DNA from: Escherichia coli O127:H6 str. E2348/69
GTDB taxonomy: Bacteria > Pseudomonadota > Gammaproteobacteria > Enterobacterales > Enterobacteriaceae
Direction: 5' to 3' (one strand)
Length of the DNA stretch: 64,000 nucleotides
Assembly: GCF_000026545.1 (NCBI RefSeq)
Contig: NC_011601.1
The notes under the pieces are model-generated. The model saw only the letters and a program-made list of their open reading frames with translations, did not search any database and was not told where the DNA came from. A program made the position numbers and the translations under genes. This document shows, piece by piece, positions 5,800-50,348 of this stretch. Each line of letters begins with the position of its first letter. The first letter of the stretch is position 1.

Positions 5800-6173
5800 T
5801 TTATTTACCTCGGGTACTTATGCTGATTTTTATTATTATGGGGAAGGTGTTATTTATGAGTTTCATTTATGCCGTTACGACAATGAACTCGGGAATTAGT
5901 ATAAGCAGCGCGATAATAATAATCATTGTGCAAATGCTAATTTAATTAGTACTATTTAAATATTATTTTGAGCATATGCACATAAGGTTGCGCGCTAAAG
6001 CACAGATTTGCGCTTTACCTTGCCGGGCGGCACTGTAATCCCTGAAATGATTGACATTGATCACATTTCTTCATTTAAACTCCTGACATTCTTATTTCAC
6101 CCAATGAAGTTATTTATTTTTAAATGAGACCAGGTCCTCATTTTAATAGTCCCTGGCTGGAGAATATTGCACA
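5800..6173. promoter_or_regulatory. Divergent garP / garD control region (AT-rich, 374 bp)
   Basis: Long AT-rich intergenic region between divergently transcribed garPLRK and garD; individual sites not resolved by eye. Confidence 0.4.
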
Positions 6174-7745
6174 ATGGCCAACATCGAAATCAGACAAGAA
6201 ACGCCAACTGCGTTTTATATAAAAGTTCACGACACAGATAATGTGGCAATTATTGTTAATGATAATGGCCTGAAAGCAGGAACGCGTTTTCCGGATGGGC
6301 TGGAATTAATTGAACATATTCCCCAGGGGCATAAAGTCGCATTGCTGGACATTCCGGCTAATGGTGAAATTATTCGTTATGGCGAGGTGATTGGTTACGC
6401 CGTGCGCGCAATCTCACGCGGAAGCTGGATCGACGAATCAATGGTTGTACTACCGGAAGCGCCGCCGTTACATACGCTGCCACTGGCAACCAAAGTCCCG
6501 GAACCCTTACCGCCGCTGGAAGGATACACCTTTGAGGGCTATCGCAATGCCGATGGCAGCGTGGGCACCAAAAACCTGCTCGGCATCACCACCAGCGTCC
6601 ACTGTGTGGCAGGCGTGGTGGACTACGTAGTAAAAATCATTGAACGCGATCTGCTACCGAAATACCCGAACGTCGATGGCGTGGTGGGGCTGAATCATTT
6701 GTACGGTTGTGGCGTGGCGATTAACGCACCCGCGGCAGTTGTACCTATTCGTACCATTCACAATATTTCGCTGAACCCTAACTTTGGCGGCGAAGTAATG
6801 GTGATTGGTCTGGGTTGTGAAAAGTTGCAGCCTGAACGCCTACTGACTGGAACGGATGATGTGCAAGCTATTCCAGTAGAAAGCGCCAGCATTGTCAGTT
6901 TGCAGGATGAAAAGCATGTCGGTTTTCAGTCCATGGTCGAGGATATTTTGCAGGTCGCCGAACGCCATTTGCACAAGCTGAATCAACGGCAGCGAGAAAC
7001 CTGTCCGGCTTCAGAACTGGTTGTCGGCATGCAGTGCGGTGGCAGCGATGCGTTTTCTGGCGTAACGGCAAACCCGGCGGTTGGGTATGCGTCTGATCTA
7101 TTGGTGCGCTGCGGCGCAACGGTGATGTTCTCAGAAGTCACAGAAGTGCGTGACGCGATCCATCTGCTGACACCACGCGCAGTGAACGAAGAGGTCGGCA
7201 AACGGCTGCTGGAGGAGATGGAGTGGTACGATAACTATCTCAATATGGGAAAAACCGACCGCAGCGCCAACCCTTCGCCGGGGAACAAGAAAGGCGGTCT
7301 GGCAAATGTGGTGGAGAAGGCACTCGGCTCCATTGCTAAATCGGGTAAAAGTGCAATTGTTGAAGTGCTGTCGCCCGGCCAACGCCCGACTAAACGCGGA
7401 TTAATTTACGCCGCGACGCCAGCCAGCGATTTTGTCTGTGGCACGCAACAGGTGGCTTCGGGTATCACCGTGCAAGTGTTTACGACCGGTCGTGGTACGC
7501 CGTACGGCCTGATGGCGGTACCCGTCATTAAAATGGCGACCCGCACCGAGCTGGCGAACCGCTGGTTTGATTTAATGGATATTAACGCGGGCACTATCGC
7601 TACCGGCGAAGAAACCATTGAAGAAGTGGGCTGGAAGTTGTTCCACTTTATTCTCGACGTCGCCAGCGGGAAGAAGAAAACCTTCTCGGATCAATGGGGA
7701 CTGCATAACCAGCTGGCGGTGTTTAACCCGGCACCGGTGACCTGA
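6174..7745 (+). CDS. garD: Galactarate dehydratase (523 aa)
   Basis: Translation and length match recalled GarD. Confidence 0.92.
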
Positions 7746-7760
7746 TAATTCAATTCGTAT

Positions 7761-7791
7761 TATGCCCGATAGCACACGTTTATCGGGCATA
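7761..7791. terminator. Perfect 10-bp inverted repeat (atgcccgata / tatcgggcat, 9-nt loop) between convergent garD and agaR; probable bidirectional terminator
   Basis: Read directly from the sequence; sits in the 51-bp garD-agaR intergenic gap. Confidence 0.5.
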
Positions 7792-7796
7792 TTGAG

Positions 7797-8621
7797 TCAC
7801 AGCGAAGACGCGTGATCCCCGACCAGAATCACTTCAACTCCAGCCTTTCGCAGTCCTTCCAGACTATCCGCAGGAATGCCTTCATCAACAATGATCATGT
7901 CGATACGTTGAGTATCAATGATCTTATGTAAACTGGAACGATTGAACTTACTGGAATCGGTGACCACGATGATCCGTTCCGCAACTTCGCACATCCGACG
8001 GTTTAAACGGGCTTCATCTTCATTATGCGTGCTGACGCCGCGCTCCAGATCGATCGCATCTACACCAAGAAACAGCATATCGAAGTGGTAATTTTGCAGC
8101 GATTGCTCAGCCTGATCACCGTAAAAAGATTGCGACTGACGGCGCAAATGCCCCCCGGTCATCAGCAGCTCAACGCCTTCCGCTTCCAGCAACGCATTAG
8201 CCACGTTCATACCGTTGGTCATCGCAATTACGTCAGTGTGCTTGCGCATCAGACAAGCAATCTCAAAAGTGGTGGTCCCGGAGTCGAGGATCACCCGATG
8301 ACCAGGCTGAATCAACTCAACGGCAGCTTTCGCAACGCTGCGTTTCATCGCGGTGTTCAGCGCGCTTTTATCTTCCACTGATGGCTCGACTGACGGCGTT
8401 GTGCTATCGCAGATCAACGCGCCACCATAGGCACGCACAGCGATCCCCTGCTTTTCCAGAAACGCCAGATCGTTGCGGATCGTCACAGTAGATACACCAT
8501 ACAACGCCGATAGATCATTAACTTGCACACTTCCTTGCTGGCGCAGGCGTTGAATGATCTGCTCTCGTCGCTCACTGGTGCCTGTCACTCGCTTCTCGCC
8601 TGAAGCGTCGGTATTACTCAT
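7797..8621 (-). CDS. agaR: DeoR-family repressor of the aga regulon
   Basis: Translation shows an N-terminal HTH and a DeoR-type C-terminal domain; sits divergent from kbaZ; the ORF is 274 aa and the precise start is uncertain. Confidence 0.88.
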
Positions 8622-44901: not shown

Positions 44902-46260
<1,359 letters not shown>

Positions 46261-46267
46261 TTCGACA

Positions 46268-47893
46268 TCAACCCTGCCCTTCAGGGGTGGGGTTACCTTG
46301 ATTATCCTCTGTAAACTCCTTTCTGAGCATCACATAATCGAAAACATCATGGTTTGCATCCACAACCCGTGAGTCTCCTTTATAGTGTGCAATCACTTCC
46401 TCAAGCGTTTGCGGCTGTTCCGGCTTTGTTACCCCCATCCACGCATTAATAAGGTAATTATTGTAAGCTGTCGAAAAGATGTTGTTTTCCGTTGTGCGAT
46501 CCACGCCATCCCCAAGAACGGGGCTATACCAGATAAACATCGGGACATGATATGCCTGCTGGCTAGCCTCCCTGCCTCCATGAAAATAGACGTTCTTCTT
46601 CGTAGGGTCGCGTTCCAGGCCGTGGTCGGCAAAATACATGACCGAGGCGCGGCGATCTTTTAATAATTCAAAAACCTGACCTAGCAAACTATCTGTGTAA
46701 TGAATGGAGTTGTCATAGCAGGCATCCTGATCGTCCTGCGGTTGAAACACGGCGCTGGATTGCGGATAGGCGCTACAAGCCGGTTCATGGCTTCCATTTA
46801 AATGAAGAACAATCAGTTTCTTTTGCTGCGTCTTTTGCTGTAACGCTTGCGATAAATGCGGCAACAACAATTCATCAAATCCTCTGACATAGACTGTTTC
46901 CATGGCGCGCATGGCGATACTGGTAACTGCTGTACCATTCTCCCGAAAAGCGGATTGCGAGCTTAGCCAGAAAGTCTGAAATCCTGCTTGATTAGCCATA
47001 TTAATAATGTTGTCCGGGTAATTATGAATGTCATGACTCAAAACAGAATCAGCAGTTAAAGAAAGGGGAACCGACAGCGCAGTGTAAGGTGCACCGCTTA
47101 TTGCTTGATTAAACAGTTTGATCTGTTTTCTTTGTGCTTCGACTTGCGGTGTCGTAGAGCGTGTATATCCATACAAAGACATATTGTCGACACGTACAGA
47201 CTCCCCCACAATCAACACGTAGGTATCAATACCTGTATCCCTGACTGATAATTGAAAATACGGCACCGTGTTTGCAATTGAGAGTAATCTTTGATGCTCT
47301 TTCGCTGCTAAAGCAAAATAATTGAGATTGAAAAACGGTGTATAGGTAGCAAATCGCGACGCTAGTATATATGGACTGAACGCTTTTTTATTTTTTGCAT
47401 CTTTATAAGCAAATTGACAAGCGGAAAATAAACTGCCCGAAATGACAATCAGCAATAATATTCCTGTCACTTTTTTCGTCGGCAAGGAAACATCATATTT
47501 TATTATTACTGCCAAAAAAAGAAGGGATAAAAAGGCAAAAGCACATAGATAAGGGATATACATCCCCAGCATTTTGACAACTTCATCCGGATCACTCTGC
47601 AGCACACTAATCGCAAATCCATCATTGAAAGTTGTACCAAAGGTACACCATGAATAGAGGCTAATACTCATGTCTGCCGCTGTCAGTAACACAAATGGTG
47701 TGGCAACAAGCAGGCGAAGCGGAAGGGATGATATACGTTTAACAACCAGGATGGTCAGAACGAAAAACAGCAATCGCTGAACCATATGCGCTCCGGAAGA
47801 GGCGACTAAGTTCGTAATACCAAAAACAATAACACAAAGATACAACAACCAATGAGATTTAAAACTTCTAACAAATTTGTTGAATACTGTCAT
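46268..47893 (-). CDS. yhbX: Putative inner-membrane phosphoethanolamine-transferase/sulfatase-family protein (541 aa; ORF open to 47917)
   Basis: N-terminal transmembrane segments plus a sulfatase-like domain in the translation. Confidence 0.85.
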   Translation of the reverse strand: MTVFNKFVRSFKSHWLLYLCVIVFGITNLVASSGAHMVQRLLFFVLTILVVKRISSLPLRLLVATPFVLLTAADMSISLYSWCTFGTTFNDGFAISVLQSDPDEVVKMLGMYIPYLCAFAFLSLLFLAVIIKYDVSLPTKKVTGILLLIVISGSLFSACQFAYKDAKNKKAFSPYILASRFATYTPFFNLNYFALAAKEHQRLLSIANTVPYFQLSVRDTGIDTYVLIVGESVRVDNMSLYGYTRSTTPQVEAQRKQIKLFNQAISGAPYTALSVPLSLTADSVLSHDIHNYPDNIINMANQAGFQTFWLSSQSAFRENGTAVTSIAMRAMETVYVRGFDELLLPHLSQALQQKTQQKKLIVLHLNGSHEPACSAYPQSSAVFQPQDDQDACYDNSIHYTDSLLGQVFELLKDRRASVMYFADHGLERDPTKKNVYFHGGREASQQAYHVPMFIWYSPVLGDGVDRTTENNIFSTAYNNYLINAWMGVTKPEQPQTLEEVIAHYKGDSRVVDANHDVFDYVMLRKEFTEDNQGNPTPEGQG

Positions 47894-48312
47894 CCAGAAA
47901 TCCAAGTTCACAACCAATATAAATAATTATCAACAATGTTCAATTTTATATCAGACATGTTTTTCAACTCTGATCCATATCAGACCGAAACACTGTTAGT
48001 TTTTTCTTTTTAAATGATGCGGCCATTGTTCTCAGTAATTAAATAACATTATCAATGCGTCTCTAAACATTACGCAGAACGTAGCCATCAGTAGTTATAC
48101 TGACAGGAGCAGGATGGTTTATCGAGAAGTAAACATATCCGTATTCGTACCGGAACTGGAGTTGACACAATAAAGTGCCAATTATGTCAGCAGAAGGAAA
48201 AAGTTTATAACTAAGGCGTACCGGCACCATCGTTTCAAAGTACCAGCTACGAGTAAAGCAACTGGACGAGATACAGATACCTGACAACCATTCCTCAGAC
48301 CAGGACCAAAAC

Positions 48313-48337
48313 GAAAAAAGACGCTTTTCAGCGTCTC
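48313..48337 (-). terminator. Rho-independent terminator of the secG-leuU operon
   Basis: agacgcttttcagcgtct hairpin followed by a U-run on the minus-strand transcript. Confidence 0.75.
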
Positions 48338-48349
48338 TTTTCTGGAATT

Positions 48350-48436
48350 TGGTACCGAGGACGGGACTTGAACCCGTAAGCCCTATTGGGCACTACCACC
48401 TCAAGGTAGCGTGTCTACCAATTCCACCACCTCGGC
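48350..48436 (-). tRNA. leuU: tRNA-Leu (GAG), 87 nt
   Basis: Reverse complement reads GCCGAGGTGGTGGAATTGGTAGACACGCTACCTTGAGGTGGTAGTGCCCAATAGGGCTTACGGGTTCAAGTCCCGTCCTCGGTACCA. Confidence 0.95.
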
Positions 48437-48450
48437 ACGGATACTACTTT

Positions 48451-48783
48451 TTAGTTCGGGATATCGCTGGTCGGCTTAGCCGGAGCAGCTGGCTGAGTTT
48501 GTTCGGTTTTCGCCGGCGCACTCAGGTTTTCCCATTCGCTACCTTTATTGGTTTTATTGCTATTGATGTTACCCAGCACCAGACTGATGATGAAGAATAA
48601 CGTTGCCAGCAGCGCCGTCATGCGGGTCATGAAGTTACCAGAACCACTTGAACCAAACAGCGTAGCGGAAGCGCCTGCTCCGAAGGAGGCTCCCATATCA
48701 GCGCCTTTACCTTGCTGCAGCATGATCAGACCAACAAGGCCAATTGCCACAATAAGGAAAACTACTAAAAGAGCTTCGTACAT
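48451..48783 (-). CDS. secG: Protein-export membrane protein SecG (110 aa)
   Basis: Translation from MYEALLVVFLIVAIGLVGLIMLQQGKG; the upstream extension is rejected. Confidence 0.92.
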   Translation of the reverse strand: MYEALLVVFLIVAIGLVGLIMLQQGKGADMGASFGAGASATLFGSSGSGNFMTRMTALLATLFFIISLVLGNINSNKTNKGSEWENLSAPAKTEQTQPAAPAKPTSDIPN

Positions 48784-49010
48784 AATTAACCTGTTCCTTG
48801 CGGAGTTGCCGCGTACCAATGCTTCAACCAATAAAGCGGGAGTTTTTAATCTTTCCCACTGAAGCGGGTGTGAATACTAACCAAAGCGAATGACCTTCGC
48901 AAGGGCAATTTTATTGCATTGTATCAACTGCGGAAAAAAACAGCAAAACCGATGTGTTCGCTGAGAAAAAAGGCGACAATCGCCGCCTTTTTAGCCAGTT
49001 ATCTAACGCT

Positions 49011-50348
49011 TTAAACGGCTTTTACTGCATCGGCGATGCGGTGTGCAAATTCAGTCACCTGCGCTTCGTCTTCGCCTTCCACCATCACGCGAATTAACGG
49101 TTCGGTGCCGGATTTACGCAACAGCACACGTCCACGGCTACCCAGCGCCGCTTCAACTTCTGCGGTCACAGCTTTGACTGATTCATGCTCCAGCGGATCG
49201 CCGCTACCTGCGGTGTAACGCACGTTTACCAGGATTTGCGGGAACATTTTCATGCCGCTGCAAAGGTCGTGCAGGCTCATATGATTACGCGCCATCGCCG
49301 CCAGCACCTGCAAACCAGCAACGATGCCGTCACCGGTAGTGGTTTTATCCAGCAGGATCACATGACCGGAATTCTCTGCACCGATACGCCAGCCTTTCTC
49401 CTGCATTTTTTCCAGTACGTAGCGGTCACCCACTTTCGCGCGCGCAAATGGAATTCCTAACTGTTTCAGCGCCAGTTCAAGCCCCATGTTGCTCATCAAT
49501 GTACCCACAGCGCCACCACGCAGCTGGCCCTGACGAAGACCTTCACGCGCGATGATATACATAATCTGGTCGCCATCGACTTTATTGCCTTCATGGTCAA
49601 CCATAATCACGCGATCGCCGTCGCCGTCGAAGGCAATACCGAGATCCGCTTTTTCAGCCAGCACACGAGCCTGGAGCGCGCGAACGTCGGTAGCCCCCAC
49701 TTCGGCATTGATGTTTACACCGTTCGGCTCACAACCGATAGCGATAACGTTCGCTCCCAGTTCACGCAGCACGTTCGGCGCGATGTGATAAGTCGCACCG
49801 TTTGCACAATCCACCACAATCTTCAGTTCACTGAGGCTAAGTTCGTTTGGGAACGTGGCTTTGCAAAACTCGATATAGCGACCCGCAGCATCAACGATAC
49901 GGCTGGCTTTACCCAGTTCTGCCGAATCAACACAGCTGATCTCTTTTTCCATTTCCGCTTCGATGGCCTCTTCTACTGCATCCGGTAGTTTGGTGCCGTC
50001 GATAGAGAAAAATTTAATGCCATTATCGTAGAACGGGTTATGCGATGCAGATATCACAATTCCGGCCTCTGCGCGGAAGGTACGCGTCAGATAAGCCACG
50101 GCCGGTGTTGGCATCGGACCAGTGAAGAGTGCGGAAAGGCCCGCAGCCGCCAGACCCGCTTCCAGTGCTGACTCCAGCATGTAGCCAGAAATACGCGTGT
50201 CTTTACCAATGATGATCTTACGGGAGCCGTGGCGCGCCAGCACTTTACCCGCGGCCCAACCCAGCTTAAGCACAAAATCAGGGGTGATCGGCGCATCCCC
50301 TACACGACCACGAATCCCATCGGTACCGAAATATTTACGATTACTCAT
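49011..50348 (-). CDS. glmM: Phosphoglucosamine mutase (445 aa)
   Basis: Translation [17 protein letters not shown] with the phosphoserine motif [10 protein letters not shown]. Confidence 0.95.

Follow-up and report, generated by a model that had tools for sequence, protein, structure and literature searches.

Regulatory systems related to the yhbX locus

Among class II promoters activated by FNR, the yfiD site lies at -40.5, and the sites of narG, nirB and dmsA lie at -41.5. Within the phosphoethanolamine-transferase family, eptA is controlled by PmrA/BasR, and eptB is controlled by sigma-E and by the MgrR small RNA. The closest known group is that of the H-NS-masked FNR targets, described as Category 7 by Myers et al. 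(2013, PLoS Genet; PMC3688515). This group includes hlyE and ttdR, and its members show FNR occupancy and anaerobic induction only in the absence of hns and stpA.

The yhbX gene is itself listed in Tables S7 and S11 of that paper (PMC3688515), and it resembles the other Category 7 targets in being AT-rich and in lying within an extended H-NS region. It differs from them in that the paper is silent on the site, the coordinates and the promoter anatomy of yhbX (PMC3688515), and in that the candidate site described below is weaker than consensus. The likeness to class II FNR promoters would consist of a TGAT-N4-ATCA inverted repeat placed over the -35 position, the lack of a -35 hexamer and the presence of a good -10 element. 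Unlike in those promoters, the yhbX start is a predicted one, the outer T/A of the operator is missing (CTGAT...ATCAG), and a second conserved -10-like element is found 17 bp downstream. With eptA and eptB, yhbX shares its protein family and conditional expression; in contrast to them, neither a PmrA-type direct repeat nor a sigma-E promoter was seen in the gap upstream of yhbX, and there was no hint of control by a small RNA.

The gap is most likely an ordinary H-NS-silenced regulatory region. Our main reading, to which we assign a probability of roughly 0.6, is that it constitutes H-NS-silenced upstream regulatory and spacer DNA of yhbX, with an FNR-type class II core promoter. This amounts to a base-level proposal for the switching on of a poorly characterized gene, in which H-NS silencing would be combined with a candidate oxygen-responsive class II promoter at 47924-47983. 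A specialist should find nothing unexpected here, as genome-scale tables in print already list yhbX among the FNR targets masked by H-NS (PMC3688515).

Anatomy of the gap between yhbX and leuU

All coordinates refer to the window, i.e. the whole 64-kb stretch of DNA that was analyzed. The source genome is that of E. coli E2348/69, to which a 651-bp query around the gap is 100% identical. The gap and the features that border it are as follows.

46268..47893, minus strand: yhbX, a gene of the phosphoethanolamine-transferase family with 541 codons and an ATG at 47893; this is the gene served by the gap
47894..48312, no strand: gap of 419 bp (37.9% G+C) that separates the yhbX start codon from the leuU terminator
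48313..48342, minus strand: Rho-independent terminator of the secG-leuU operon, a hairpin with the end of its T-tract at about 48308
48350-48436, minus strand: leuU, tRNA-Leu(GAG)

The initial annotation had described an AT-rich stretch of about 420 bp reaching from the leuU terminator to the yhbX start, and it had placed this stretch correctly, as the length and composition given above confirm. The G+C content of the gap is below that of yhbX (43.0%) and of the window (51.7%), and it falls to a minimum of 31% over positions 47800-48099, near the yhbX start. The size of the gap is unremarkable for E. coli. Its sequence is single-copy, with a median of one place per genome. The K-12 annotation (NC_000913.3) has no feature in the gap, and none was annotated under the gap match in 40 records sampled from the 5,168 RefSeq complete genomes that carry the gap. 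According to published work, the secG-leuU operon ends at the leuU terminator, whose strength has allowed its reuse in plasmid constructs.

The product of yhbX matches the solved structures of EptC, EptA and MCR-1, and the gene is under purifying selection, with 56 synonymous SNPs out of 84 where 23.7 would be expected. The true start of yhbX is uncertain, because the Shine-Dalgarno match (tTGGAtttctgg) ahead of the ATG at 47893 is weak. If translation began at an in-frame TTG at 47917, the gene would be 8 codons longer, and some database entries give the protein 552 or 558 amino acids in place of the usual 541.

Several leads from published work and predictions were set aside. A predicted GalR site has coordinates outside the gap, in leuU/secG; a sigma-54 paper that mentions yhbX concerns a yhbX knockout; and the EASY-edit and ExcludonFinder papers on yhbX concern the gap between argG and yhbX.

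A three-allele cassette between argG and leuU

We examined the conservation of the locus across 5,426 complete genomes, in all of which leuU and its terminator are present. In about 250 of them similarity ends exactly at the end of the terminator T-tract, near 48308, which is the right-hand edge of a variable cassette.

46261-48308 of the window: variable interval from the argG stop to the leuU terminator (in the other alleles, 6832-8005 of locus L002 and 6131-8005 of locus L003)

Three alleles occupy this interval, which can now be recorded as a three-allele cassette in E. coli. The first consists of yhbX and the gap and is carried by approximately 5,170 genomes (about 95%). The second, found in 237 genomes, is an unrelated helix-turn-helix gene of 317 amino acids on the opposite strand. 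The third (AST85), found in 9 genomes, carries a yhbX-like gene with 69% protein and 70% DNA identity, and its upstream gap measures merely 235 bp. All three alleles are identical from AAAAC[G/A]AAAAAAGACGC onward.

We looked for intermediates between the two yhbX-type alleles. Among the best 120 protein matches to YhbX and to the divergent-allele protein none had an identity of 70-99%, and the matches listed are near-identical E. coli proteins. A protein-based scan of genome contigs returned 94 pattern matches, of which 0 were confirmed. A metagenome scan, using a pattern whose geometry had been checked on the window and on the retrieved loci, found no third allele with the three-block architecture described in the next section. 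A scan of genome contigs with a DNA pattern for the leuU terminator gave a single match, a contig of 1485 bp from a metagenome-assembled genome labeled 'Collinsella sp.' (JAIJJM010000762.1). This contig carries the E. coli leuU terminator and the 3' end of the tRNA exactly, and it is probably an E. coli contamination of the Collinsella bin. Neither of the two contig scans recovered an Escherichia genome, contrary to expectation for such a collection.

The cassette comprising yhbX and its upstream region is AT-rich and varies among strains, which is consistent with horizontal acquisition. Two traits of H-NS-silenced acquired DNA were observed, namely a G+C content below that of the window and a presence that varies among strains. 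We therefore regard yhbX and the gap as an AT-rich replaceable cassette that was probably acquired horizontally. Insertion sequences have entered yhbX and the gap repeatedly, and such recurrence fits a dispensable locus. IS1203 truncates yhbX in O111:H- 11128 (L007, 1-2200); in a chicken isolate, copies of IS26 interrupt yhbX and have taken the place of most of the gap (L013, 547-3860); and IS1 lies within the yhbX/gap region of a pig isolate (NT1W22, hit H24).

The adjacent tRNA gene, the AT-rich composition and the strain-variable argG-leuU interval would also suit another interpretation, in which the gap is a decayed gene or the remnant of a mobile element that integrated beside the tRNA gene. 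We consider this highly unlikely. The gap has no similarity to phages; its four matches in a plasmid collection are E. coli records, three of them chromosome-sized (4.8-4.9 Mb), and no true plasmid was among them. Neither an integrase nor a direct repeat of the tRNA 3' end was found, the ORF translations tested had no similarity at the protein level, and the edge of the cassette is located at the terminator, outside the tRNA. H-NS-silenced regulatory and spacer DNA of yhbX remains our preferred reading of the gap.

A conserved candidate promoter next to yhbX

In order to determine whether any part of the gap is conserved between the yhbX-type alleles, we compared the gap of E2348/69 with that of the divergent allele, anchoring both on the ATG; the comparison comprises these two alleles only. 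The whole gaps are unalignable, and the best local score is no better than that of shuffled sequences. A single ungapped stretch of 63 nt, located 27-89 bp upstream of the ATG, is common to both: it contains 37 matches, whereas dinucleotide shuffles give 27.8 +/- 1.8 and reach 37 in 0 of 1000 cases. Within it three blocks occur at equal spacing in both alleles: a palindrome, then after 19 nt TATAAAAT, and after a further 11 nt a block that contains GATAAT.

47970..47983, minus strand: palindrome CTGATATGGATCAG with the core TGAT-N4-ATCA, 77-90 bp upstream of the ATG, a candidate operator of the CRP/FNR type
47943..47950, minus strand: TATAAAAT, predicted -10 element (TAAAAT, 47948..47943), identical in both yhbX-type alleles
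47924..47931, minus strand: GATAATTA, second -10-like block (GATAAT, 47931..47926), 17 bp from the first -10

On the sense strand, E2348/69 and K-12 read CTGATATGGATCAG (47983..47970), 19 nt, TATAAAAT (47950..47943), 11 nt, GATAATTA (47931..47924), and the divergent allele reads aTGATATAGATCAG, 19 nt, TATAAAAT, 11 nt, GATATTTA. The sequences between the blocks are unrelated in the two alleles. The palindrome of AST85 (aTGATATAGATCAG) is found at nearly the same distance from the ATG with 12 of 13 bases alike, which 2 of 500 shuffles equal, and TGAT-N4-ATCA occurs just twice in the 64-kb window. Conservation is also high within the common allele: TATAAAAT is invariant in every aligned strain, and the 42 bp that extend from it through the palindrome show 100% identity in 4,547 of 5,176 genomes, with an identical core in K-12. 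One or two changes in this 42-bp core are seen in about 12% of genomes, and in one lineage ATCAG has become ATTAG, which breaks the palindrome core. Judged by these comparisons, the core at 47924-47983 (about 65 bp) is the only part of the gap with evidence of selection.

The initial annotation had suggested that the gap could hold a regulatory leader, a small RNA or a small protein. The regulatory part of this suggestion holds for just the ~90 bp next to yhbX; the other two parts were not borne out and are treated below with the distal gap. A promoter prediction had been proposed as a check, and the promoter scan finds a sigma-70-like site in these ~90 bp, formed by CTGATA (47954..47949) and GATAAT, with a 9/12 match.

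TAAAAT has no -35 hexamer within usable distance. A start near 47936, predicted from TAAAAT, would place the center of the palindrome (47976.5) at about -40.5, a geometry that rests on the predicted -10 element because the supplements of Kim 2012 and Ettwiller 2016 contain no mapped start for yhbX. An alternative start near 47919, predicted from GATAAT, would put the palindrome at about -57.5, which is non-canonical. Compared with the FNR consensus TTGAT-N4-ATCAA, the palindrome scores 8/10 with a perfect TGAT-N4-ATCA core, which FNR sites have in common; compared with the CRP consensus TGTGA-N6-TCACA it also scores 8/10. In both alleles, both half-sites lack the outer T by which FNR sites differ from CRP sites.

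These equal scores and the missing outer T lend some weight to the idea that the palindrome serves a regulator different from FNR, such as CRP, YeiL (the third protein of the CRP/FNR family) or a repressor of the LacI/GalR type. In a related variant the blocks would be tandem sigma-70 promoters that have no dedicated activator, as the two conserved -10-like blocks 17 bp apart, and the use of GATAAT by the promoter scan, might suggest. We regard this group of explanations as doubtful. It has to be set against the FNR peak and the anaerobic induction reported for a strain lacking hns and stpA, which were obtained in glucose medium, where CRP is inactive (PMC3688515). These data favor the preferred reading, in which FNR is the most likely activator at the palindrome; the start site, the operator and the identity of the activator are each deduced from the evidence presented here.

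Neither the FNR-specific T nor the CRP-specific G is present in the palindrome, which contains a Dam site. A more speculative proposal, which we hold to be improbable, is that the palindrome serves as the operator of a CRP/FNR-family regulator whose site is undescribed (for example YeiL) or as a methylation-sensitive switch and that, separately, a sigma-32 transcript arises in the distal gap. If the operator were of the YeiL kind, yhbX would be the first defined target of that regulator.

Two further features of this region were observed. The Dam GATC site in the palindrome (47972-47975) is kept in both yhbX-type alleles and has become AATC in a lineage with G47972A; methylation-sensitive binding at this candidate site is conceivable. 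A perfect 9-bp direct repeat, ATATCAGAC, is found at 47948-47956 and 47977-47985, at a distance of 29 bp. Its copies overlap the TATAAAAT block and the palindrome, respectively, and the repeat is not conserved in the divergent allele.

H-NS, FNR and sigma-70 occupancy in K-12

We examined the locus in published K-12 data. H-NS ChIP-chip regions at 3318628-3320878 (anaerobic) and 3318000-3320779 (aerobic) span yhbX, the gap and leuU (Myers et al. 2013, PMC3688515). We converted coordinates by anchoring the tables on leuU, and the conversion agrees with the authors' own entry '3320105 w/i leuU'. An FNR ChIP-chip peak at yhbX is reported solely for the strain lacking hns and stpA and is absent from the wild type (0.42 to 0.70, significant); the resolution of ChIP-chip is several hundred bp, so that the peak is not assignable to the palindrome specifically (PMC3688515). 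Likewise, the +O2/-O2 expression ratio of yhbX is 0.46, a 2.2-fold anaerobic induction, solely in that strain (PMC3688515). The hns-deficient strain gains 196 FNR peaks, some of which may be non-specific, and many of the unmasked promoters have FNR sites near -41.5 according to the authors (PMC3688515). The anaerobic data include a sigma-70 ChIP-seq peak at 3319596, some 40 bp away from the ATG of yhbX (PMC3688515). Neither yhbX nor coordinates in the range of the gap appear in the table of predicted FNR sites (PMC3688515), and the supplements of a second H-NS paper have no yhbX entry.

The published occupancy of H-NS, the FNR peak and the anaerobic induction fit the following model. In K-12, an H-NS filament would coat the whole cassette and occlude a weak, activator-dependent promoter, leaving it nearly silent. 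The core promoter, having no -35 element, would be driven by an activator of the CRP/FNR type. With the palindrome about 40.5 bp upstream of the predicted start, the geometry would be that of class II, where an activator bound over the -35 region makes direct contact with RNA polymerase. On removal of H-NS, FNR could bind the palindrome and recruit RNA polymerase, and yhbX expression would then be induced under anaerobic conditions. The distal ~320 bp of the gap (47990-48312) would be a non-functional spacer, serving only as extra DNA for H-NS to bind.

Other signals are found nearby in the same data. Wild-type FNR ChIP peaks with weak motif scores (-7.16) are reported 'w/i leuU and w/i secG' (3320105) and in secG (3320479), and an IHF region around leuU/secG (window 48350-48830) is listed at 3320275-3321092 (PMC3688515). 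These FNR and IHF signals may reflect high transcription rather than regulatory sites.

The distal gap

We analyzed the remainder of the gap for coding sequences and RNA elements. Two features deserve consideration.

48063..48287, minus strand: 74-codon ORF with a TTG start, judged not to be a gene
48211..48239, minus strand: weak sigma-32-like element, tTTGAAA, 14 nt, CGCCTTAG, read from the sequence and treated as a lead only

An unannotated small protein, encoded either by the 74-codon ORF or by an ORF of 20-40 codons, appears very improbable. The 74-codon ORF had been described as lacking a ribosome-binding site; this was incorrect, as a Shine-Dalgarno-like GAGG is located five bases 5' of the TTG (ctGAGGaatggTTG). 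The ORF is also open in all nine diverse strains, as would be expected from their 97-100% identity, and gene callers occasionally predict parts of it. Its SNPs, however, follow a neutral pattern, with 6 of 15 synonymous in nine strains where random placement predicts 4.7 (P=0.31). The same test gave P<0.001 for each of the control genes: yhbX (counts given above), secG (10/10 versus 3.5) and glmM (103/105 versus 36.3). In one strain the ORF has an in-frame 6-bp deletion. It has no Pfam match, and neither a word-indexed search of 5.8 billion proteins nor an exhaustive HMMER search of 1.84 billion representatives found homologues outside E. coli; the protein matches are E. coli self-hits or fragments only. 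One candidate for a divergent homologue (P0199, 71% identity) was rejected as K-12 sequence fused to unrelated sequence. The ORF directly follows a strong terminator and lacks a promoter of its own, it has no counterpart in the divergent allele, and, as stated above, it is unannotated in K-12 and in the sampled records. As for shorter ORFs, those of 20 and 25 codons in the gap are frameshifted in another lineage.

It is also quite unlikely that the distal gap constitutes a small RNA or a long regulatory leader, for example a transcript running from the sigma-32-like element toward yhbX. A weak RpoH holoenzyme peak (3.2) was reported by Genomic SELEX in the yhbX-leuU spacer, and we infer that it maps to about 48208. 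K-12, which has C at 48239, reads CTTGAAA-N14-CGCCTTAG at the corresponding place, as opposed to TTTGAAA in E2348/69. The -10 part of the element is, however, a poor match to CCCCATNT. Fold z-scores were marginal, at -1.88 for the minus strand (5 of 100 shuffles fold as well) and +0.09 for the plus strand, in sequences that are 97-100% alike across strains and thus too similar for a covariation test. An Rfam search of 46000-50000 at E<=1 returned the tRNA and one match outside the gap, and nothing in the gap. Apart from the leuU terminator, our scan detected no terminator-like site inside the gap, no plus-strand promoter and no promoter-terminator pair, and a literature search found no published RNA from the gap. 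The divergent allele, with its 235-bp gap, lacks the distal region altogether. The Rfam match outside the gap is a weak one to the alpha-proteobacterial SAM riboswitch, in the secG-glmM gap (48970-49026, minus strand; 19.5 bits against a gathering threshold of 36, E=0.36), and it is almost certainly due to chance.

Across nine strains the nucleotide diversity of the gap (0.025) is the same as in the secG-glmM gap; it falls between that of the third codon positions of yhbX (0.038) and that of the first and second positions (0.007-0.009). Indels of 1, 2 and 6 bp occur in the gap in these strains. In K-12, a cat cassette was inserted at about 48203, inside the 74-codon ORF, as a linked marker for moving nearby ftsH alleles. 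In view of its absence from the divergent allele, its neutral evolution and this marker insertion, the distal ~320 bp (47990-48312) has no detectable function and is most likely spacer, and a neutral distal spacer supports the published use of this position as a marker insertion site.
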